From UHGV virus genome UHGV-0199215: a stretch of 54,684 nucleotides of DNA; one strand, written 5' to 3'. Under the pieces are notes generated by a model, which was not told the origin of the DNA, did not search any database, and saw only the letters and a list, made by a program, of their open reading frames with translations. Below, one piece after another: positions 3,116 through 54,684 of the stretch. The position numbers and the translations under genes were made by a program. Source of the stretch: a virus. Position 1 is the stretch's first letter; the number at the start of each line of letters is the position of its first letter.

Positions 3116-3830
3116 AGCTGATCAGGTCTTCCAGACTGTCACGATGTGGTGTTTCAGTGTTGGAATAGAAACGAACCGCTTTTAACAGCATCAGGAATAA
3201 CCACCCTTCACCCGGTGTTAAGTCGCGCCCGGTAATTGTGTTAAACGCAGCAACGATTTTAGCTGACGAACGTTCCTGACCAGACGTGTCATACTGCTTA
3301 CCACGTTCTGTCAGTAGCTGTTCAGCCTGTTTCAGTAAGTCAGACGCTGTTGATGGTTGTTGGACAGGTGTGAATGTACAGCGACAATTTGAAAGTGGTG
3401 TAATTGTTTCAGTTCCGACGGTCATTGGTGACCAGGAACGTTTGTCTGTAATACGAATAGCATAACCATGTTCGACTAACTGGTCGTCATTCCACCCGGT
3501 CGCAATGAATTCTTCGTAAGTATTACCACGGGCTTTCGGTGTCATTAACAGTTTTGTTTTGACAGATGTTGCTGGACCACAAGGGCGTTTTTCAAAGATT
3601 TCAAAGTCATCAGCATTGTCGATAATTTGTGGCGGATTTCTTAAAATTGGTGCGTACATTGAACCGTCAGACCATGCAAAAGTGTTTGTTGTCTTATTAA
3701 GAACAACACATGTAGCCCAGTCTGGCGCTTCACTCCAGTCTACTTGTTGTGTTTTCATTCGATAGTTAAGTGATTGTTTTTCACTTTCAGCATCATATGC
3801 AGGTATGTTCCACGGATGTTCAAACATCAT
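3072..3830 (-). CDS. hypothetical protein
   Basis: 252 aa; internal TYEEFIATGWNDDQLVEHGY motif also found at C-terminus of ORF 30824..31615. Confidence 0.55.
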   Translation of the reverse strand: MMFEHPWNIPAYDAESEKQSLNYRMKTQQVDWSEAPDWATCVVLNKTTNTFAWSDGSMYAPILRNPPQIIDNADDFEIFEKRPCGPATSVKTKLLMTPKARGNTYEEFIATGWNDDQLVEHGYAIRITDKRSWSPMTVGTETITPLSNCRCTFTPVQQPSTASDLLKQAEQLLTERGKQYDTSGQERSSAKIVAAFNTITGRDLTPGEGWLFLMLLKAVRFYSNTETPHRDSLEDLISYAALHAEEYLNDER

Positions 3831-3857: not shown

Positions 3858-3903
3858 AAGTTTAAAATAATTCTTGACACATTGCAAGCGGTCACACTAA
3901 CAT
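3858..3903 (+). promoter_or_regulatory. conserved phage promoter (UP-like TTTAAAATAATTC, -35 TTGACA)
   Basis: TTGACA at 3874-3879, 17-18 nt spacer, weak -10 CTAACA/TAACAT; member of repeated promoter family. Confidence 0.6.
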
Positions 3904-15755: not shown

Positions 15756-16391
15756 CTATTTAAGCGCATTCTGATACAGTTGCGCGATATCGTCGATGGT
15801 TGCACCTTCAGGAACACTCTGAACCACGTTACCAACCACACCAGACAATTCCACCCGGTCGATACTGTTACCGGTGATCTTATCCAGTTGTTCAGACGCT
15901 TTTGCACGAGTTTTCGGGTCGAACAGTTCACGCGTCACCAGAATGTATCCGCCCAGCATGTAACGTTTGTAGCAAACTACGTACTGTTGCAGATGGCTGG
16001 GGATATCGTCGGTACTGTTCACCCACAGGTGTTTCGCTTCTGTGTCGTCTTCACCAGGGACGATAACGCGTTGACAATACGGTTCCAGTAATTCTTCAGC
16101 CGTGCTTGCCGCTCGTTTCCACCACTCGACACGACTCGTTAACGATTCCCCGACAGACTCAAGCGCATGACTTCCCATCGCGTCCAGATAGTTCAACACC
16201 TTCGTATTCGACAGGAGGCGGTGTGCAGTGACTTTAGCTGCGTCAGGGTCTTTATGCCCCGGATAAGCGTGTAAGACGCACTGAGCGTTGCTGAAGCCGT
16301 TATTGACACGATCTAACCACAGGTTAGCGAAACGGAGTTGATCAGTTGTTAACTCCAGAGCAGCCCTTTTAGCCCGGTCTGAAATTTTCAT
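15756..16391 (-). CDS. terS: terminase small subunit (putative)
   Basis: LTTDQLRFANLWL...AYPG resembles the LTxKQxxFxxEY...AGYS signature of small terminases; first in minus-strand packaging order. Confidence 0.55.
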   Translation of the reverse strand: MKISDRAKRAALELTTDQLRFANLWLDRVNNGFSNAQCVLHAYPGHKDPDAAKVTAHRLLSNTKVLNYLDAMGSHALESVGESLTSRVEWWKRAASTAEELLEPYCQRVIVPGEDDTEAKHLWVNSTDDIPSHLQQYVVCYKRYMLGGYILVTRELFDPKTRAKASEQLDKITGNSIDRVELSGVVGNVVQSVPEGATIDDIAQLYQNALK

Positions 16392-16454
16392 AAATTTGTC
16401 TCCCATAAATTTTAAATTAGTTTCCCACAGATACCCACGGGTTGTCCACACGCC

Positions 16455-16892
16455 CTGTTTTACAGCTAATACAATGTTAGTATTAATTTTACAGTTAGTG
16501 CACAACATGCACTAATTTTCGACTATATACATAAATACGCAATCCATAATCACAATAATTTCAAAGACTTGCATAAAAACATAGATTACAATAGGTATCT
16601 CCCAGACTTTTATTTTAGCTCTATTTACAGCTAATACACTATATGCACTATCTCTATCTTTCTATACTACTTCTTTTTTATATCTATGTTTTCTATGTTA
16701 TCTATGAAAAGATAATAAAAAGAATAAGATAGGGAAGGGTTGGTTAAAAAGTAAACATGACGAAATCTATGTTAAATATAACTTTAATGCACAATATGCA
16801 CTATATAATTCACAACGTGCATTAGCTGTACCAACATAGATACACAACGTGCACTAACAGCTAATACACAACGTGCATCTTGCACTAGCTGC
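16455..16892. promoter_or_regulatory. array of operator-like sites (core GCTAATACA / ACACAACGTGCA)
   Basis: At least 6 related sites at about 16462, 16498, 16627, 16786, 16809 and 16841-16892 in a 550-bp AT-rich divergent intergenic region. Confidence 0.5.
16685..16771. repeat. 87-bp conserved intergenic element, copy A
   Basis: About 93 percent identical to 54457..54543. Confidence 0.7.
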
Positions 16893-16908
16893 TAAAGCAC
16901 GTTATGAT
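16880..16908 (+). promoter_or_regulatory. sigma70-like promoter overlapped by operator repeats
   Basis: TTGCAC, 17 nt spacer, TATGAT. Confidence 0.5.
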
Positions 16909-16939
16909 TTACCCGTGGTTAAATAAGAAGGGTGTGATA

Positions 16940-17653
16940 ATGAAAAAGAACCTTTTAGACGAATTGATAGATTTAAAAGGCGGGGTACAAAATGCTGTTG
17001 AATACCTTAATCGTCGAGGTGTTAAGGTAACCATTGGTCGTTACAACCAATGGTTAAGCGGTAGGTTTCATCCTAAATATGAAACGATCAGTATTATTCT
17101 TGAAGAGATTACTGACTTCACACTGTCACCTTCGCCAGTACAACATTCTGACGAAAACATTGTTCTTAAACACACAATACCGGTTACCGAACTGCGTCAG
17201 AAATTACCATACAGGCGTTTTGCTAATAACTACTGGCAACGTGTCAGATACGTTGATTCACAGATCCTGGAAGCTGTTCACGGTCACGACGTGTGGGCAC
17301 GGTTTGAGGCGATGTGCGGTAATTTTGAATGTGCAAGATACGTGTTACGCAGGAATTTAAACGAACACACCGTTACTGACAGTTGGATTCAGAATGGTTT
17401 GCGCCGGGGCTGGATCCCAGAATGTGTAAACGTGATGGTCGATTTGCTTGAAAAATACGAAGGCACCGGAACACCGTTTAACGTGATGGTTTGTGAAGCA
17501 CCTGTAGCACGAGTGGAAGCACCTGTAGTCGATGTCAGCGATTTGAAGGAGAAAATCAGACTGTATGCGTTATCACACAACCCGCATTGCGATGTAGATA
17601 ATATGCCGGACGATGTTGTTTTGATGATGTATAAAGATATGATGGGTCAATAA
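16940..17653 (+). CDS. putative DNA-binding regulator
   Basis: ATG 16940 after AAGGGTG; N-terminal HTH-like segment; directly downstream of the operator array. Confidence 0.5.
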   Translation: MKKNLLDELIDLKGGVQNAVEYLNRRGVKVTIGRYNQWLSGRFHPKYETISIILEEITDFTLSPSPVQHSDENIVLKHTIPVTELRQKLPYRRFANNYWQRVRYVDSQILEAVHGHDVWARFEAMCGNFECARYVLRRNLNEHTVTDSWIQNGLRRGWIPECVNVMVDLLEKYEGTGTPFNVMVCEAPVARVEAPVVDVSDLKEKIRLYALSHNPHCDVDNMPDDVVLMMYKDMMGQ

Positions 17654-21882: not shown

Positions 21883-21924
21883 ATTATCGGGGAGGTTTGG
21901 TAATCTGTCAAGAATTATTTTAAG
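21883..21924 (-). promoter_or_regulatory. conserved phage promoter (minus strand)
   Basis: Reverse complement gives AAAATAATTCTTGACA, 17 nt spacer, -10 GATAAT. Confidence 0.6.
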
Positions 21925-23439: not shown

Positions 23440-23468
23440 ATCTGTAATTCGTCAAGAATTATTTTACA
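23426..23468 (-). promoter_or_regulatory. conserved phage promoter (minus strand)
   Basis: Reverse complement gives TAAAATAATTCTTGACG, then -10 TATAGT. Confidence 0.6.
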
Positions 23469-25842: not shown

Positions 25843-26016
25843 TTACGCTCCGAACTGACGTTCAGCAGCCATCAGTTTGACCAGGTTGATAGCAGATCGC
25901 CCGGTAAGCAGATTACGTTTAACATGAATTTCAGTAACGTTCAGACGTTTAGCAACAGCCTCAATACCGTGGTTATCAATCAGTTTTTGCAGACGTTTAA
26001 TGCGTTCAGTATTCAT
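25843..26016 (-). CDS. small HTH protein (57 aa)
   Basis: Translated by hand: MNTERIKRLQKLIDNHGIEAVAKRLNVTEIHVKRNL... Confidence 0.4.
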   Translation of the reverse strand: MNTERIKRLQKLIDNHGIEAVAKRLNVTEIHVKRNLLTGRSAINLVKLMAAERQFGA

Positions 26017-36598: not shown

Positions 36599-36918
36599 TG
36601 CTTACTCCCGGTTTTACGTTGTTCCGCTTTTAAACCTTCAATAACAACTTTCAGGTCATTTGTTGACTGTGTTAGCTCTTTAACACTAGTGAGGATTTCA
36701 GCGTTCTGTGTTGCCTGATATTCAATTTTGATGTCGTGAACATCCACTCGGGATTCCACTCGCTTTGCCAGATTAAGCGCCTCGTGTGCATAGGTTTTTG
36801 CATCTGCAATATCTTTTTCATTAGAATTGATTTGGTTTTGAGTTACCCCGTAACCTACCAACCCTGTAGCAACAAATGCTATTATAGGCCAATACCTCAA
36901 CACTGGGTTATCAGACAT
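36595..36918 (-). CDS. lysis-associated membrane protein (holin or antiholin candidate)
   Basis: One N-terminal transmembrane helix then coiled coil; heads the lysis cassette. Confidence 0.45.
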   Translation of the reverse strand: MSDNPVLRYWPIIAFVATGLVGYGVTQNQINSNEKDIADAKTYAHEALNLAKRVESRVDVHDIKIEYQATQNAEILTSVKELTQSTNDLKVVIEGLKAEQRKTGSKQ

Positions 36919-36944
36919 TGTTCTACACTCCTGGAGACTTAAAG

Positions 36945-38933
36945 ATGGCTAACTGTAATGATTATATCAGTGCTGATGATTTGAAAACAGGCAAACAAGC
37001 GATTTTACATATCGAACACGTTGCGAAAAGTCGTGATGATAACGGTAACCCCGCACTGGAAGTAACAGATATCATCCGTGGTGAATCAGTTACTAACCCT
37101 ACGCTAGATGGTTTTTTTAGTTCGGTAGGTTTTAAACCTGCAGACGGTTCATTTGAAGACGGTGGTACGATTAATCATCGCTGGGAAACTTTATTATATA
37201 AAGCAGAAGGTAATTACTATCAATGGATGGGTGTACTACCTAAAGTTGTTCCTGCCGGTTCAACACCTGCGACTACGGGTGGTGTTGATGTTACACACTG
37301 GGTAAATCAAAGTGATTTAACATTACGAAACGATCTTAAATCTAATAAAGGCAGTTCAATAGTAACGTCGGCGTCTGGGGTTTCTGCGCAAAGATTGGCA
37401 TCCGGGTATAATTTCATAGGGCTGTCAACATCAGAAAATGTGATTAATAGTAATATTGACGCAATAAAAGACCCGGCAACTGGACTGTTTTGGGTATATG
37501 AAGGTGCTGTTTCGTCACCATTAATTGTCCCTGCAGGTACTGTTCCTCCCGAGCAACCATTGGCAAGGTACACGTCTACTAATTGGCGGTGTGTAGGACT
37601 ACTTGACGGCTATAAGGAGACAAACGCTAAAAATTACGGTGCTAAATGTGATGGGGTAACTGATGATTATTACGCCTATCAGTTGGCGCTGTACCACACT
37701 AAAAGTCACGTAACCCATATTGGCGACGCACGAATTGCCACAGCTACGCTCATTAAACCAGTTGGAGTGAGCATTGTTGGTGCATCTGGGTACGTAGGTG
37801 CGCAGCTTGGTAATAATCTTCCATTTACTACTTTTACGTTCGACGGTCCTTACGGTAAAGACACGTACGCTATCGATAACGGTGAAAGTGCTGGAACTGA
37901 AGATTCGGGACGCATTCAGTATGTATATCTCCGTGCGATCAATGACTCTAAGGATAATCTTAACGCAGTTAAATTGACCAAGGCCGGGCAGTTGATGGAT
38001 TGCGGGATTTTAAATTTCTGGAACGGTGTTAAATACGATGGGGGAAGCGCCTACGTACAAATCCACAGAAATAATATTAACTCCTGCAACTGCTGCATTG
38101 ATGCAGCTGGAAGTGAGTCACATATCACCAATAACCACGGGTATAATGACAGCATACGTACTTCTGCACAGTTCAGACCTGCTATTCTTATCAGAAGTGC
38201 TGGTAACATCGTTACTGAGAATAAATTCTTTGGCGACGGGGCAAATACCCCAAAAGGAGTAGAGATATGGGGTCCGGGTAATGTGGTGGCAAATAACGTT
38301 TTTGACGCTTTTACCGACATTGGGATCCTGATAACCTGCAATGACGCCTCTGTCCTGCCTGATAATAATTTAATATCAGGAAACCTGATTACGGGGATTG
38401 GTGATTCGTCTGATACGGCTAATACATTCCGAGCAGGAGTAGTGGTAAGCAATTCTGGTGCGGGGGCCGGGACTATAACAGGAACTGTTGTATATGGAAA
38501 TAGTATGTATAACAAAAGAACAGACCGACAGATGCAGTATGGAGTAGTGATAAATGCGATATCTGGTTCTTTTCCTGATTCACGGACCATATACAACACT
38601 TTGATTACGGGCAACACTTTCGGATTCGGGATTACCGGGCGGAAGGTGATTGCTCTTGGGGCTAACCATTCAGGAAGCAGAAGTAACAATAACTCCGGCG
38701 TTATTACTGAAGCAATTGGGAGTGGTACGTATTCAAACGGAGCAGTGATACAACATGGAATGTCAAGACCACCAGAATTTATAGAGTTCACACTTATAGA
38801 TTCTGGAAATCCAGTTGCTATTTCATTCTCTGCGGTAACTGATACAACATTTACTATTATGATCAGAGATTCTTCTGGAGGGATAAGCGGAACCCGTGCT
38901 GTTGCATGGAAAGCATCAAGATTAACGCCTTAA
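36945..38933 (+). CDS. tail fibre / tailspike with beta-helix-like domain
   Basis: ATG 36945 after GGAGA; Gly/Asn/Thr-rich repetitive C-terminal half; convergent with tail genes. Confidence 0.65.
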   Translation: MANCNDYISADDLKTGKQAILHIEHVAKSRDDNGNPALEVTDIIRGESVTNPTLDGFFSSVGFKPADGSFEDGGTINHRWETLLYKAEGNYYQWMGVLPKVVPAGSTPATTGGVDVTHWVNQSDLTLRNDLKSNKGSSIVTSASGVSAQRLASGYNFIGLSTSENVINSNIDAIKDPATGLFWVYEGAVSSPLIVPAGTVPPEQPLARYTSTNWRCVGLLDGYKETNAKNYGAKCDGVTDDYYAYQLALYHTKSHVTHIGDARIATATLIKPVGVSIVGASGYVGAQLGNNLPFTTFTFDGPYGKDTYAIDNGESAGTEDSGRIQYVYLRAINDSKDNLNAVKLTKAGQLMDCGILNFWNGVKYDGGSAYVQIHRNNINSCNCCIDAAGSESHITNNHGYNDSIRTSAQFRPAILIRSAGNIVTENKFFGDGANTPKGVEIWGPGNVVANNVFDAFTDIGILITCNDASVLPDNNLISGNLITGIGDSSDTANTFRAGVVVSNSGAGAGTITGTVVYGNSMYNKRTDRQMQYGVVINAISGSFPDSRTIYNTLITGNTFGFGITGRKVIALGANHSGSRSNNNSGVITEAIGSGTYSNGAVIQHGMSRPPEFIEFTLIDSGNPVAISFSAVTDTTFTIMIRDSSGGISGTRAVAWKASRLTP

Positions 38934-38961: not shown

Positions 38962-41490
38962 TCAATCATCCTGATAATAACGTGCATCGTAATTGATGCA
39001 CGTTAAACCTACCTGATAATTGTTATCCCTTCCTGACGGTTCCATACTCTGAACAAGCATCGCTAATTTGCTACGTTCGTTATCAGCACGGATCACATAT
39101 GCGGTACGGTCACGTAACCACCCCGTGTAAATTTCTTCAGACGGTTGATAAGCCATTACCACTGAAAATTCATCATCCCCGGCAGTTACAGGAATATTTT
39201 CAAGTGTTCCCAGTCGGTGGGTTAACGTTATACTGTATGTATTACCCGTGGTGAACGTAACAGGATCACTAAGAATAAGCGTTAAACCGTCAACATCGAC
39301 TACGACACCTTCGTGTTGTTTCATACGGGTATTATCAATCATGTCCACACGCATACCCGGGGTAGCCTGTAACCCGATACTAAGCGCTGTGCACTCATGA
39401 GTGATACGCTGATAACGTAATTTATTCATCTCACGATTAGCACGGATGTTTGCAAGATATCGCGACTGACACGCAACAAGGTCTATCTTATTAAGGTTTG
39501 TTTCTTCACCTTTAGTTACATACAAATATGATTTTTCATTGTGATCGAAGTATTTAACCTGAACGCCCGTATATTCTTTAGGTGGTGCGAAAGAACGTGT
39601 GCGTTTATCACTGTCAGGGATCTTAAACGCGTGACCAAACTGCATTGCTGACTGGTCCTGCGGTAATTCAGGCCAGAAATACAATACACTACCGATCTGA
39701 TACGGTTTAACATTCACCGTGTTACAGATAGTGTCCAATCCTTCTTCGTACGTCGTACTGTTGTTATCAAACGTATAACCAACTTCAATTGCTCGTTGGT
39801 CACCAAAATATTCAAGAAGTTGTGCCTGAACAGCATATAAAGCATCGCGATCAATAGTGTCCAATGTGCGACGACCAAATAAAGGATCTGTGTGCATTGA
39901 CATTACAACGTCTGCAAAATTACTACTTGCAACACCGTTATACACACGTGTTGCAATCATGTTTAATTTACGTTCTTTTTGTTTCAGTGCCGCGTTTGTT
40001 GCTTTCGTCACGGTGTGAATTAACGTCACATCACCATAGGAGCGCGGAGAAACGTTCGTGATAGCGTATAAATCGCGCCACTTGATGTTGTCAACAACAG
40101 ACCCTTCGAATTCTTTATCTGTGTCTGACAGTCGTCTTACAGACACATTGACAGGACCGTCAAAAGGGTTGTCCACAATTAACGAACTGCCTACAGCTTC
40201 TGTATAGCGACCACTGACAGACATAGAATGTGTCACATTCGCCTTCACACCGTTCGGGTCCGACAAAACTACCTGGAAGTCACAGGTAAACGGATAAATG
40301 TCGCCATCAGTTTTATACACACCATTCTGTGCATAAAGATTAATCATCAACTTATCCGCACTATCAATCAGATAAGGTCCGACAACATATGGCATGGTAC
40401 TGTCAAGAGACGGTGAAAATTTGTATAAAAAATTTCCGCTTCCTTCAGTGGGTTCAAATTCCCAGTAACCGTCGTTTCGCAAGTAAGCCTGTGTATATGC
40501 AGCCTGACCACTTTCAGACAGAGCATCCCAACCATCACGACCATTAGTATCAATGATTAACGTATTCTCACCTGCATAAATAATGTCATATTCACCAGAC
40601 AGATCATTACGTACATACGTGTTTAATGGTAAAGTATTAGGTGTAAAACTGTAAAATTGCGATAAACGTATTTTACTACCGATTGGTGCACGTTCCGACC
40701 AGTCAATCGTAATGTTATCATCACTGGTAATCGTAGTGTCAATTTCACCAGTGCTGTAAATTTTAAAACTCGCTTTGCTGATATCAGCATAGTTTGGTGG
40801 CTTGACTTCAGATCCGTCTGCTTCGTTCGATGACTTAGCAACCATGATCGGAAAAGTGTTAATATCAATTGCACCACCGATATTCATATATGGAGAACCA
40901 TACCCTGGTGCATTACCTTTTTTATAAAAGTCTAATTTTTCACCGCTGATATTTACAGCAGGTGTAATACCATCACGAACGTCTTCGACTTCGTATTCAC
41001 CAGCACCCAGACACAGAAACTGAACTTCGTATTCTGTTCGGTCAATGAAGATTCGGTAATCCATTAACAAATCAGGGTATGCCAGTACACGACCACGAAT
41101 ATCAGAGATACGCTCACCCGGTCGCGAAGCATTAGTACGCCCCTGAAGCGCGTTGTTAGACGACGCTGAACGTGAGTTCTTAAGATTAGCCGATGCACTG
41201 GTATTCGGCATGAACAACTTTAAAATGGGGTTTAAAATTGTGCTGATAACTTTTGTTATTGCACTAATCACCCCACCTTTTGGTAATTCATAAATATGAT
41301 AAACAGCGTCAGGATCAGTCAGTACGCTGGGATCAGTAACCCATTTCTGGGTAATGTTTTCGTCGTTTTTATAAATCAGTAACCCACGCGGACGAACTGT
41401 ACCCACAGGCCAGCGTTTCAGCACCCATTCACCAAAGTCAACGTTATCCGCGTGTTCAACAGGATTAGTGTGATAAATGACTTTAGACAC
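38962..41490 (-). CDS. tail tip / central tail fibre protein (J-like)
   Basis: 842 aa, last large gene of the minus-strand tail module. Confidence 0.6.
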   Translation of the reverse strand: MSKVIYHTNPVEHADNVDFGEWVLKRWPVGTVRPRGLLIYKNDENITQKWVTDPSVLTDPDAVYHIYELPKGGVISAITKVISTILNPILKLFMPNTSASANLKNSRSASSNNALQGRTNASRPGERISDIRGRVLAYPDLLMDYRIFIDRTEYEVQFLCLGAGEYEVEDVRDGITPAVNISGEKLDFYKKGNAPGYGSPYMNIGGAIDINTFPIMVAKSSNEADGSEVKPPNYADISKASFKIYSTGEIDTTITSDDNITIDWSERAPIGSKIRLSQFYSFTPNTLPLNTYVRNDLSGEYDIIYAGENTLIIDTNGRDGWDALSESGQAAYTQAYLRNDGYWEFEPTEGSGNFLYKFSPSLDSTMPYVVGPYLIDSADKLMINLYAQNGVYKTDGDIYPFTCDFQVVLSDPNGVKANVTHSMSVSGRYTEAVGSSLIVDNPFDGPVNVSVRRLSDTDKEFEGSVVDNIKWRDLYAITNVSPRSYGDVTLIHTVTKATNAALKQKERKLNMIATRVYNGVASSNFADVVMSMHTDPLFGRRTLDTIDRDALYAVQAQLLEYFGDQRAIEVGYTFDNNSTTYEEGLDTICNTVNVKPYQIGSVLYFWPELPQDQSAMQFGHAFKIPDSDKRTRSFAPPKEYTGVQVKYFDHNEKSYLYVTKGEETNLNKIDLVACQSRYLANIRANREMNKLRYQRITHECTALSIGLQATPGMRVDMIDNTRMKQHEGVVVDVDGLTLILSDPVTFTTGNTYSITLTHRLGTLENIPVTAGDDEFSVVMAYQPSEEIYTGWLRDRTAYVIRADNERSKLAMLVQSMEPSGRDNNYQVGLTCINYDARYYQDD

Positions 41491-51867: not shown

Positions 51868-52278
51868 TTATGCTCCTTTAGAATACGGTGCAATAAGTAA
51901 TGCGGTAACTACCTGGTTTTCAGCAGTGGCACCAGTTTGAGAAATAGCCACAACCAGTTGTTCAGCAATAGCGGTCTGGAATCGTCCGTCAGCACCAACA
52001 GCAAGTTCGACACCTGTGGCGAACGTTGCAGCGGCTTTTACTGGTACGAATTTTTCTTTTTCATTCACCAGATCAAAGAATACACCAGCAGTAGCATCAT
52101 CAACAGCTACACCGTCGATACGACCGCCAGCCGTTGGGAGTTTGTATTTAGGTACACACTGGTTAGTGTCACCTAAACTGGTATCCAGAACAAGACCAAC
52201 ACCTGCCGAAATAGCCACGGATGCAACGGCACGGGTCGGGCGCTCATAGTTCCAGTAGATTTTGCTGTTCTTAGCCAT
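51868..52278 (-). CDS. head decoration protein (putative)
   Basis: 136 aa, Ala/Gly/Val-rich, immediately upstream of capsid gene. Confidence 0.45.
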   Translation of the reverse strand: MAKNSKIYWNYERPTRAVASVAISAGVGLVLDTSLGDTNQCVPKYKLPTAGGRIDGVAVDDATAGVFFDLVNEKEKFVPVKAAATFATGVELAVGADGRFQTAIAEQLVVAISQTGATAENQVVTALLIAPYSKGA

Positions 52279-53537
52279 TATTCGTCACCTCGCATCGCTT
52301 CGATTGCTTCCTGACCTTTTTTAGTTGCAGAAATGGCCTGCATAGCCTGGGTGCGTGTTTTACCCGGATTTGCTTTCAGCCATTCGTTGATCATGTCTTC
52401 CAGTGCACTGGAACCTTTACCACTGCCATTCGGCGCGGCTGGCTCTTTACGTGCTTTCCAGAGTTCATCGGCCTGTTTGAGTTTTTCAACCAGGAAGTTA
52501 CGATCCGCTTCCGGCAAACGCTCAAGAGTCATGACCATCTGGGTTTTCTGTACCATTTCACCCGGGATGTGTGCGAAATCAGTGTTCACGGTTTCTTTAG
52601 CTTTCGCCAGTGCCGCTTCGGTCTGTGCTTTGCGAAGTTGTTCGTCCTGAGATTTCAGAACGTCATACATCGGACCAGCTACAGATTTCTGAACAACCTG
52701 ACCAGCAATCGTGGTAAATGATTCATCAGCCTGTTTAGCCATCGTCACGAGGGCATCGCGAGCAGTCGCATCCATTTTACGGAATGCTTCCTGATCAGAT
52801 TCAGGCAGAGAATTATGATACGCCTTATGGACGTCGTTCATCTCAGCCAGGGCTTTGTATTTTTCCAGTTCGGACATTTCGATTTCCTCTGCCGTTTTTA
52901 AAACTTGAGGTACTTCCTGGTCCGGGTGTAATTTTTCCCACGCGGATCGGACTTTGTTTTTCACACCTGCTAAATCGGCTTCAGGGATTTCAACTTTGTT
53001 ACCGCGATAACCCGGACCTAATGCAGCAAGTGCAGCGCCTACAATACGCGCATCAGGTTCACCGCCAGGGGTAGCTGTTAAACGAAGTTTCCAGGTTGAA
53101 GGTTTTTCTGGATCTGGTACATATGCATAATCAGATGCCGGAAAAACTTTACCGTCTTCAGTTTTGCCACCTTTCGCTTTATTCATCGAAATACCAGCGG
53201 CCTGTTGCAACGTTATAATATATTCATTTACCGCGTCACGCAATGCTGCTTGTTTATCGGTAATAGAATCATCTTTTGCAATATCCTCTGCTGCTTCATA
53301 AAGCGCATCGTTCAACATCCACGAATTAGAGAGGAAATCACGAACTTTCTGTTCAAGTTCTTTTTCAGCCAGTGCCGCACTGAATGTTGACTTTAAAAGA
53401 GCAACGGTAGGTGGTTCTGAATGTGATTTAAGAACAAGAGCGTTTGCTCCCTCGTGAGCAGGTTTTGTCACGCCGGACAGAAAACCGATCTTCATCGATT
53501 TAGCGCGGCGTAAATGATTAGTACCATCTGTACGCAT
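52278..53537 (-). CDS. capsid scaffolding protein (possibly protease-scaffold fusion)
   Basis: 419 aa with long Glu/Lys/Ala-rich helical C-terminal half. Confidence 0.5.
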   Translation of the reverse strand: MRTDGTNHLRRAKSMKIGFLSGVTKPAHEGANALVLKSHSEPPTVALLKSTFSAALAEKELEQKVRDFLSNSWMLNDALYEAAEDIAKDDSITDKQAALRDAVNEYIITLQQAAGISMNKAKGGKTEDGKVFPASDYAYVPDPEKPSTWKLRLTATPGGEPDARIVGAALAALGPGYRGNKVEIPEADLAGVKNKVRSAWEKLHPDQEVPQVLKTAEEIEMSELEKYKALAEMNDVHKAYHNSLPESDQEAFRKMDATARDALVTMAKQADESFTTIAGQVVQKSVAGPMYDVLKSQDEQLRKAQTEAALAKAKETVNTDFAHIPGEMVQKTQMVMTLERLPEADRNFLVEKLKQADELWKARKEPAAPNGSGKGSSALEDMINEWLKANPGKTRTQAMQAISATKKGQEAIEAMRGDE

Positions 53538-53947
53538 TATTCCACATCCTCATAATATGCAGTTCCGCCAATGGAATATCCAGTATATTCACCAGTCTGA
53601 AACTTTTTCAAAACTTCGTCATCAGTTATCAACGTGCCAACAATGACGCCTGTCTGATCCAGTTTATCAACCAGACCAAAACTTGCCGCAATGTCTTCAG
53701 TCATCGGGAACGCAAACACAACTTTCCCAACAGGTTGTTCATTGTGCATATTGTCCATGATGCGCTGATCAGAATTCATGAAGTCCATCCATGCTTTCAG
53801 GGTGACATCCTCGGGAAATTGCTCGTTGTCCGTGTCTGTGTAAATTTCTAACTGACCTGTCTCCTGATTACGTTTTTTACAGATGCTACCCCAACCGAAT
53901 ACCATACGTAGTGAGTTGTCAACCTTATTAACTTTTACGTTAATCAC
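53537..53947 (-). CDS. hypothetical head-module protein
   Basis: 136 aa; position between MuF-like gene (across window join) and scaffold. Confidence 0.4.
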   Translation of the reverse strand: MINVKVNKVDNSLRMVFGWGSICKKRNQETGQLEIYTDTDNEQFPEDVTLKAWMDFMNSDQRIMDNMHNEQPVGKVVFAFPMTEDIAASFGLVDKLDQTGVIVGTLITDDEVLKKFQTGEYTGYSIGGTAYYEDVE

Positions 53948-54291
53948 GGGGATTGTCCTCGTATTGTTTCAACATGACTAAATTCTAACATTTCGGATGA
54001 ATAATTGCACTGGTGATACACGCTGTTTACAACGTTACCGAATATCTCAGAAAGATTCTTGATCGGTTCAACAGCAGTCGTTACTGGTTCAACAGCAGTC
54101 GTTACTGGTTCAACACCGTCCAGATGTTCAGCGACAACCTGGAAAAACACTGTGTTAGTTTCACGGTCAATAATAACCACTGTGCTGGAACTATCTTCAA
54201 CAATGCTGAATGAGTAGTCGTAACGATCACCGTGAACTTTACGGGCGCGACGAATGAATTCGTCTGTAGCAACTCTGATGTTCGGATCCAT
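53944..54291 (-). CDS. small protein with homing-endonuclease-like N-terminal motif and internal tandem repeat
   Basis: KVHGDRYDYS...VVAEHLDG motif; VEPVTTAVEPVTTAVEP repeat; ATG 54291 after AGAAGGG. Confidence 0.4.
   Translation of the reverse strand: MDPNIRVATDEFIRRARKVHGDRYDYSFSIVEDSSSTVVIIDRETNTVFFQVVAEHLDGVEPVTTAVEPVTTAVEPIKNLSEIFGNVVNSVYHQCNYSSEMLEFSHVETIRGQSP
54065..54120. repeat. 21-bp tandem repeat, about 2.6 copies
   Basis: ggttcaacagcagtcgttact repeated at 54065, 54086 and partially at 54107. Confidence 0.85.
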
Positions 54292-54321
54292 ACCTTCAAC
54301 CCTTCTTGTTTTCTTGACCAC

Positions 54322-54362
54322 AGGGTAGTTGTGTCGATGTAATCCGTCAAGAATTATTTTAC
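54322..54362 (-). promoter_or_regulatory. conserved phage promoter (minus strand), weak -10
   Basis: Reverse complement gives TAAAATAATTCTTGACGG; -10 region poor. Confidence 0.5.
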
Positions 54363-54456
54363 GTATAGATTCATGAGAAGTATGCGACTCCCTATACCTT
54401 TTAAACCTCTTCTACTTACAACGACTTTTACTACTTATACCACTCTTCTATTTATT

Positions 54457-54543
54457 TATGTTTTCTATGTCATCTATAAAAAGATAATAAAAAGAATAAG
54501 ATAGAGAGGGGTTGGTCAAAAAATAAACATGACGAAATCTATG
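54457..54543. repeat. 87-bp conserved intergenic element, copy B
   Basis: About 93 percent identical to 16685..16771. Confidence 0.7.
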
Positions 54544-54557
54544 AATCTATGATCTAC

Positions 54558-54643
54558 TAATACAGAACGTGTATTAGCTGCAACTCAAAATCATGAAACC
54601 TATGTAAAACCATGTGTAGCTAATACAGAACGTGTATTAGCTA
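54558..54643. promoter_or_regulatory. two palindromic operator-like sites
   Basis: TAATACAGAACGTGTATTA at 54558-54576 and TAGCTAATACAGAACGTGTATTAGCTA at 54617-54643. Confidence 0.5.
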
Positions 54644-54647
54644 TATC

Positions 54648-54684
54648 TTTAAAATAATTCTTGACGAATTACAGACGGTAGGGT
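54648..54684 (+). promoter_or_regulatory. conserved phage promoter, truncated by window end
   Basis: CTTTAAAATAATTCTTGACGAATTACAG; -10 lies beyond the window. Confidence 0.55.

Follow-up and report, generated by a model that had tools for sequence, protein, structure and literature searches.

Modules in which an operator is paired with a helix-turn-helix (HTH) protein, or an iteron with an initiator, and whose specificity can be exchanged are well known. Those closest to the system described here are the lambdoid CI/Cro repressors with OR and OL (including P22 C2, N15 Cro and P2 C), the lambda O protein with ori-lambda and the SPP1 G38P protein with oriL/oriR, the p4 switch of phi29, and the RinA/LtrC/ArpU late activators of Gram-positive phages. 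We analysed a system of this kind in the virus genome UHGV-0199215, a stretch of 54,684 nt (hereafter the window). It consists of palindromic sites (dyads) at two loci, region A (16392-16939) and region B (54292-54684 plus 1-33), each array being arranged around a copy of an AT-rich element, and of a 237-aa protein with an N-terminal HTH domain whose gene adjoins region A (16940..17653, plus strand; phrog_25538, function unknown). Across relatives, five classes of dyad match five N-terminal alleles of this protein, and the dyads at both loci are very probably its binding sites.

The likeness to the lambdoid repressors lies in the Cro/XRE-type HTH fold of the 237-aa protein, in the multiple dyad-symmetric sites at two separate loci, some of them over the regulator's own (here putative) promoter, and in the joint exchange of recognition domain and operators as specificity ('immunity') classes among mosaic relatives. 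The differences are just as clear. The phage group to which the window belongs is reported to be virulent and without lysogeny genes (PMC4153490). The protein, at 237 aa, has an unrelated centre, a variable heptad linker and a C-terminal domain, with no sequence match to CI or Cro. Its region B sites lie upstream of a core promoter and its arrays surround a conserved AT-rich element. Finally, the genome seems to lack a small Cro-like partner: a 69-aa protein of SP069 led us to look by tblastn for such a paralogue of the N-terminal domain, and none was detected in either the window phage (W) or Salmonella phage 9NA.

The lambda and SPP1 origins, as generally described, have arrays of dyad-symmetric sites of about 20-27 bp beside the most AT-rich DNA, an adjacent gene for the binder, and a binder in which N-terminal specificity is joined through a flexible linker to a conserved remainder, as is the case here; SPP1 also has two distant loci. 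The 237-aa protein, however, shows no homology or fold match to lambda O, G38P or the Rep families, and its sites lie outside its gene and not within it. In the phi29 p4 switch, a virulent phage has several sites for a regulator of its own on AT-rich DNA that is intrinsically curved, flanked by an early-type and a late promoter that diverge, much as in region B. The p4 protein is, however, not known to be an XRE-type HTH protein, and in the window the late-promoter side is undefined and the geometry varies between classes. RinA, LtrC and ArpU resemble our case in having a regulator gene beside terS and sites upstream of terS, but the two genes are divergent here and other late operons are without sites. 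No homology to these activators was detected, since the 237-aa protein matches no Pfam family.

As far as we have checked, what is new is an orphan protein family with an uncommon architecture, the fact that it occurs in phages of a virulent group, the arrangement of two loci, each around a conserved AT-rich core, and the existence of five specificity classes. The 2014 announcement of 9NA describes none of these features, and a detailed study of the molecular lifestyle of 9NA-like phages is missing (PMC4153490); a 2019 J Virol paper on 9NA-like phages lies outside this comparison.

The source phage is a 9NA-like E. coli siphovirus and the window is its whole genome, circularly permuted: phage Bas82 is contiguous from '...ggtagggt' into 'atctttatcacggg...', so that base 54684 joins base 1. 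Positions 54300-54684 are about 90% identical to the E. coli phages KarinMuster/Bas82, PDP46, BDX09P1, AVIO78A, 536P12 and PJ16, and the Salmonella phages 9NA and Sasha are more distant relatives of this stretch. We call W-type those phages that have the dyad class of W. On a rough gene map, region A separates the leftward small terminase gene, terS (15756..16391, minus strand, start MKISDR at 16391), from the divergent, rightward gene of the 237-aa protein, and region B separates the leftward head operon from rightward small genes. The head operon runs from a 115-aa gene with VEPVTTA repeats (53944..54291, minus strand) through an XkdF-like protease (53537-53947), a 419-aa protein and a scaffold to the major capsid gene. 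The order of terS, site array and HTH gene is kept even in the distant relatives L022 and Klebsiella phage Carvaje.

A previous sequence-only reading of region B had described a perfect palindrome at 54617-54643, a second copy at 54558-54576 and, next to it, an 87-bp element shared with region A, and had proposed that a single DNA-binding protein co-regulates the two loci. The first palindrome, which we call B2 (TAGCTAATACA-GAACG-TGTATTAGCTA, 54617..54643), is indeed a perfect 11+5+11 palindrome, and it has the top weight-matrix score of the genome (29.0). Its centre, at 54630, lies about -66 from the predicted start of a rightward promoter, P(+), whose UP-like A/T block it abuts. The second copy, B1 (CTACTAATACA-GAACG-TGTATTAGCTG, 54554..54580, core 54558-54576), is present but imperfect, with perfect 8-bp arms and 9/11 pairs over 11 bp. 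It is centred at 54567, which is 63 bp from B2, 24 bp beyond the end of the AT-rich element and about -129 from the predicted P(+) start. As the earlier reading had it, both palindromes lie between two promoter-like sites, P(+) and the leftward P(-), and the two loci adjoin terS and the head operon.

Region A holds a longer series. Motif and weight-matrix scans found dyads A1 (16463-16489) and A2 (16492-16518) in the terS leader region, A3 (16628..16654) just left of the AT-rich element, and A4 (16781-16807) and A5 (16802-16828) within 16781..16915; the weight matrix also gave further sites in that same interval, weaker ones or half sites, with centres at 16847, 16871 and 16902. In both regions dyads stand 23-24 bp from the ends of the AT-rich element.

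A lone palindrome with 11-bp arms is unremarkable, as the genome has three and 4 of 30 shuffled sequences reach 11 bp; it is the recurrence of the motif that is remarkable. The consensus TARTRCA-N5-TGYAYTA, with at most one mismatch, has seven matches in the genome against 0.27 expected, and all of them fall in 16467-16824 and 54558-54639. With a half-site weight matrix, the seven best dyads and three weaker ones are confined to regions A and B, the two region B sites scoring highest.

The sites also vary in an informative way among relatives. B1 and B2 keep their arms in six W-type genomes, whereas three forms of the 5-bp spacer occur, namely GAACG, CGTTC (the reverse complement of GAACG) and GATTC: in B2 it flips between GAACG and CGTTC, and in B1 the variants are GATTC and CGTTC. 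Kept arms with a changing spacer are the pattern that would be expected of a symmetric dimer reading the arms. The switch between GAACG and CGTTC in the two sites, as compared with L001 and L009-L012, suggests either that the palindromes have undergone internal inversion or template switching, or that copies of the site have been exchanged. In region A, a 63-bp unit with extra sites has been gained or lost, and is found in Bas82, L004-L006 and Sasha.

The match between dyad classes and N-terminal alleles of the 237-aa protein extends over five pairs. Class 1, TAATRCA-N5-TGYATTA, is found in W, Bas82 and region A of Sasha. Class 2, ATAACAC-N3-GTGTTAT (in 9NA also written CAGATAACAC-N3-GTGTTAT), is that of 9NA and L008; in 9NA both regions have it at the homologous positions, and the rest of the genome lacks it, bar two chance matches with one mismatch. 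Class 3, ACTATSATAGT, belongs to L021/P0003, where the sites lie directly upstream of the gene and after the same AT-rich element; the P0003 protein is near-identical to that of the window except in its first 70 residues, L021 being only 2 kb long. Class 4, ATAACC-N3-TGGTT, belongs to L022/P0010, and class 5, CTTACCA-N3-TGGTAAG, is present in both regions of Carvaje, together with the gp99 allele. Both loci have the cognate class in 9NA, Carvaje and five W-type genomes. That one protein reads both loci, as first proposed, is the most probable interpretation, given that 9NA and Carvaje carry their own dyad in both regions and that it tracks the allele of 16940-17653, the first of three candidate genes named at the time.

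Sasha (and, by BLAST, Sergei and Solent) departs from this pattern. These phages keep the P(+) promoter and have W-type sites and a W-type protein in region A, but in Sasha region B holds two sites of the Carvaje class, which are non-cognate. The two loci are thus not coupled in every relative: Sasha, Sergei and Solent have the same P(+) but region B sites of another class. Such phages indicate that recombination can uncouple the two loci and that region B need not be under cognate control. The motif of region B in Sasha (ACCAGTTATGTA) also has near-copies in the Sasha record KX987158 at 19974 (minus strand) and 20034 (plus strand), which are inverted relative to each other, 60 bp apart and situated between gp37 and gp38; they may be a third site cluster of that non-cognate class.

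The 237-aa protein is modular. An N-terminal Cro/XRE-type HTH domain of about 60 aa is followed by a conserved helical centre, a variable EAPVARV linker and a C-terminal part of about 40 aa. Between W and 9NA it is 45% identical overall; the N-terminal 70 aa are variable (25% identity), the centre and C-terminus are conserved, and the linker varies in length. An AlphaFold model (ten family members, mean predicted local distance difference test score, pLDDT, of 81.7) has a predicted N-terminal four-helix domain with a local match to Cro/XRE HTH proteins, and the remainder of the model gave no informative fold match. An exhaustive profile search found only about eight family members.

Two minor observations concern this gene. 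The linker is encoded by a 21-bp tandem repeat (17490-17560), present in about two copies here and about 16 in Sasha (record 52088-52369), and the VEPVTTA repeat of the 115-aa protein (53944-54291) is similar to it. Within the gene lies another perfect 11-bp-arm palindrome, TAACCATTGGT-CGTTACA-ACCAATGGTTA at 17028-17056. It sits exactly over the predicted recognition-helix codons (TIGRYNQWL), and its ACCA..TGGT cores resemble the site classes of L022 and Carvaje; it may be due to chance, given the frequency of such arms in shuffled sequence.

Alignment of the 87-bp element of region B (54457-54543) with 16685-16771 gave about 90% identity, and the similarity extends to 100 nt. Copy A (16672..16771) and copy B (54444..54543), at 90% identity, form the longest dispersed repeat of the genome. 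Copy A is the least stable duplex stretch of the genome (GC 16%) and copy B the second (GC 18%), these values over 60 bp lying about 4 standard deviations (sd) from the mean. A-tract phasing reaches about +5 sd in copy B and +2.7 sd in copy A. In copy B the 9-mer (T)ATCTATRYT stands three times in tandem, the A-tracts are phased, and the 3' block reads GGTTGGTCAAAAAATAAACATGACGAAATCTATG. The core, made of the three tandem 9-mers and then an A-rich run, is kept in both regions of every lineage examined (9NA and L008 by comparison, the L022 and Carvaje copies by eye). The extra 3' block of about 40 bp is the mark of the region B form, and W-type phages have this form in region A too, which accounts for the 100-nt repeat. 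The motif WTCTATR is not over-represented genome-wide, and 12 of its 21 copies fall within the two regions. A sigma-70 scan of the element found one weak overlapping site in region B (TAAACA-18-TATGAT, 54524-54553) and none in copy A; reading by eye gave only -10-like GATAAT/TATAAT, with no -35.

All the promoters discussed here are predictions, and P(+) and P(-) are putative promoters by consensus match. P(+) (54644..54684, plus strand) has the UP-like block TTTAAAATAATTC, a -35 TTGACG at 54661-54666, a 17-nt spacer and a -10 TATCTT (54684 plus 1-5) that spans the window junction, and is predicted to drive the genes from about 34/52 to 1506. P(-) (54322..54363, minus strand), with UP-like AAAATAA, TTGACG at 54350-54345, a 17-nt spacer and TACCCT at 54327-54322, is predicted to drive the 115-aa gene, the first downstream, and the rest of the head operon; it is found in W-type relatives and missing from the corresponding position of 9NA and Sasha. 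P(+) and P(-) are members of a family with the motif gTTTAAAATAATTCTTGACGGATTACA, about 10 nt (N10), TAnnnT, whose core AAAATAATTCTTGAC has 13 copies against 0 expected, each upstream of a gene in the right orientation. The other copies lie at 3864, 5636, 7858, 11306, 13076, 14690, 15178, 28758 and 28822 on the plus strand, and at 21907-21921 and 23451-23465 on the minus strand. These 11 have no dyad nearby, and region A has no family copy. Many of the family promoters would drive small rightward genes that are interleaved, in opposite orientation, among the leftward packaging and head genes between 1 and 15.6 kb. The putative promoter of the HTH gene is of a different kind (TTGCAC at 16880-16885, a 17-nt spacer and TATGAT at 16903-16908) and is overlapped by the weak sites at 16871 and 16902.

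Our best reading, held with middling confidence, is that the dyads form operator arrays, for an autoregulated phage HTH protein, that gate the flanking promoters. It is based on the repressor-type HTH domain, the sites over the protein's own putative promoter, the sites in the terS leader and the site next to the UP-like block of P(+). Sequence and comparison provide the sites, their confinement to two loci, the covariation with HTH alleles, the HTH fold and the promoter motifs, whereas we infer the binding itself, dimerisation, the sign of regulation and any looping. Dimers of the 237-aa protein would bind the palindromes, its N-terminal domain reading the half-site AGCTAATRCA. Of the two arrays, that of region A (16463-16915), with about 8-10 sites, is situated between terS and the protein's own gene, and that of region B (54554-54643), with two sites, between the head-operon promoter and the early-type promoter, each array being built round one copy of the genome's most AT-rich, A-tract-phased element. 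The protein would be made from its own promoter, would then shut that promoter off through sites over its -35 and -10, and would also occupy the terS leader sites. In region B, two presumably high-affinity sites on the same face of the DNA (63 bp apart), placed against the UP-like element, would gate P(+), and the leftward late promoter might possibly be gated as well, through the bent AT-rich DNA.

Several points weigh against this reading. B2 lies outside the core promoter, ending 17 bp upstream of the P(+) -35, and the distance from site to -35 goes from 22 to 33 bp between classes; simple occlusion of P(+) by an operator is therefore not evident. The site-to-site spacing is 63 bp in W and 69-70 bp in 9NA and Sasha, so that, with the distance to the -35 also varying, the geometry of a face-of-helix activator is not conserved. 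For a transcription factor the regulon would be strangely narrow, as sites are lacking at 11 of the 13 promoters of the family and at the late genes for TerL, portal and tail. Because the Sasha region B sites are non-cognate, control of region B by the 237-aa protein is dispensable. Pfam and PDB sequence searches with this protein gave no match. Finally, a transcription model leaves unexplained the conserved AT-rich core, the least stable DNA of the genome. Transcriptional co-regulation of the two loci can only be inferred, and a role in replication origins fits the anatomy about equally well.

We consider it possible, if tentatively, that the two loci are replication origins, or an origin and an enhancer (compare lambda O/ori, SPP1 G38P oriL/oriR and P4 ori/crr). 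The 237-aa protein would then be an origin organiser whose variable N-terminal domain reads the dyads as iterons, and whose conserved central and C-terminal domains recruit an NrS-1-like primase-helicase to the adjacent AT-rich element, which melts. The sites over its own promoter would represent the autoregulation usual for initiators, and as initiators commonly autoregulate, the operator and origin models are not exclusive. The AT-rich elements agree with an origin in being the two least stable duplex stretches of the genome, about 4 sd from the mean, with three tandem 9-mers that are conserved family-wide, like the primase (92%). DnaA and IHF consensus boxes are, however, absent from both regions of W and 9NA. 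Sites flank the elements on one or both sides, at two loci only and not spread over promoters, and the gene of the binder is adjacent; this gene adjoins terS, on the other hand, and lies at a distance from the genes for replication. A protein whose specificity lies in an N-terminal module, joined by a flexible linker of repeats to a conserved C-terminal part, would parallel lambda O, and two distant origin-like loci would have precedents in SPP1 and P4, but the protein has no sequence or fold similarity to initiator or replisome-organiser families, and its sole recognisable domain is a repressor-type Cro/XRE domain. The cumulative GC skew has its maximum at about 15-17 kb and its minimum at the end of the window, the places of regions A and B, but gene orientation also switches there and confounds this coincidence. 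In addition, Sasha-type phages are viable with non-cognate region B sites.

A P4-type origin-binding domain in the primase was considered and rejected: the primase is NrS-1-like, and its PDB matches cover only the N-terminal prim-pol region, none of them being to such a domain. A fuller form of the origin proposal, which we put forward only tentatively, is that 9NA-like phages carry a swappable replicon-specificity cassette, in which the orphan protein with a Cro-like N-terminus is the organiser of origins at 16.7 kb and 54.5 kb. Class-specific iterons may surround a family-conserved three-9-mer unwinding element used by the NrS-1-like primase-helicase. The N-terminal domain and iterons may be exchanged together, in at least five classes, and one origin may be dispensable or non-cognate in Sasha-like recombinants.

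It is unlikely that another phage or host protein reads the dyads and that the 237-aa protein tracks them through linkage only. Linkage is possible in principle because the covarying partners are DNA neighbours, and L021 is short. Yet the swap in P0003/L021 is limited to the N-terminal 70 residues of a near-identical protein and to the sites immediately upstream. Another of the candidates first named, the NinH-like HTH protein (2706-2900), does diverge, with 71% identity to 9NA and 59% to Sasha; Sasha, however, shares the region A sites and the N-terminal domain of W, and a NinH conserved at only 59% is an improbable reader of the same sites. The third candidate, a 57-aa protein (25843-26016), is 88% identical between W and 9NA despite their differing dyads and does not track them. 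The same holds for TerS (87%, N-terminus included), the ParB-like protein (90%) and the primase (92%): being conserved between W and 9NA, whose dyads are entirely different, these four proteins cannot set the specificity, and the DNA-binding candidates other than TerS and NinH are 88-92% conserved across classes.

Less likely still is that the sites belong to a pac recognition region, the arrays recruiting terminase and region B being a secondary pac. Region A is directly upstream of terS, the order of terS, array and HTH gene persists in L022 and Carvaje, and the pac of SPP1, which lies upstream of and within terS on bent DNA, would offer an analogy. 9NA itself packages by a pac/headful mechanism (PMC4153490). 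TerS, however, does not track the sites, being conserved between W and 9NA while the dyads differ entirely, which makes a pac role unlikely, and a weak Pfam DNA_Packaging_2 match was dismissed because it covers a stretch of only 16 residues.

Least probable of all, and hardly credible, is that the 87-bp element is expressed, as a small or cis-acting RNA in two copies or as a small hydrophobic protein from the 43-aa open reading frame (ORF) at 54373-54504 that overlaps it: this ORF is an annotated gene in Bas82, is intact in W, Bas82 and L009-L011 and has an in-frame 29-aa analogue in region A with the same end (...VFYVIY(K/E)KIIKRIR), but it is probably not real, as L012 has a frameshift in it and a search of 9NA and Sasha gave no homologous start (by reading of the sequence, Sasha has an in-frame stop and no start codon, and no ribosome-binding site precedes the ORF), while conservation runs 40 bp beyond the stop codon, no sigma-70-like promoter matches both hexamers in either orientation, Rfam gave no match in 53900-54684 at E<=1, and RNA folding was not significant on either strand of either copy (z-scores -0.8 to -1.7).

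The binding of the dyads by the 237-aa protein would give phrog_25538, an orphan family without Pfam assignment, a testable role as a sequence-specific reader of two control regions, and the five natural pairs of protein and site could serve as orthogonal parts. Regions A and B are the two likeliest places for the control of transcription timing or DNA replication in this genome, and members of the 9NA-like group are used or proposed for biocontrol and therapy. Were the origin proposal true, it would be the first origin assignment we have found for the 9NA-like group, and an example of an HTH domain of the repressor type that has been taken over for reading an origin.

A second repeated sequence, distinct from the dyads, was noted in the leaders of several genes. 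Thirteen copies of the 10-mer CCCGTGGKWA are present where 0.32 would be expected; both strands carry it, and it is found within genes and also in the TerL, terS and HTH-gene leaders. Its copies lie at 3523, 4448, 5889, 9908, 11274, 16432, 23300 and 38132 on the minus strand, and at 16912, 20131, 28613, 33989 and 44835 on the plus strand. In the HTH-gene leader it follows directly after TATGAT (16903-16908). The 9NA genome has nine copies, some at homologous positions, and the head-operon leaders of 9NA and Carvaje contain TATGAT-N7-ACCCGTGGTTAA. This 10-mer could be a late-leader element, or a primase or methylase site. The terS leader also includes a block, AGTTTCCCACAGATACCCACGGGTTGTCCACA (16411-16450), that is conserved, with changes, in 9NA, L008, L022 and Carvaje, and could be the terS promoter or leader, or part of pac. 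A DnaA-box-like sequence, TTGTCCACA (16442-16450), lies in this leader and is not conserved in 9NA. Further along the genome, a perfect 11-bp-arm palindrome, TAACGTGCATC-GTAATT-GATGCACGTTA at 38978-39005, is located between the convergent genes 36918-38933 (plus strand) and 38962-41490 (minus strand), and is probably a bidirectional terminator.

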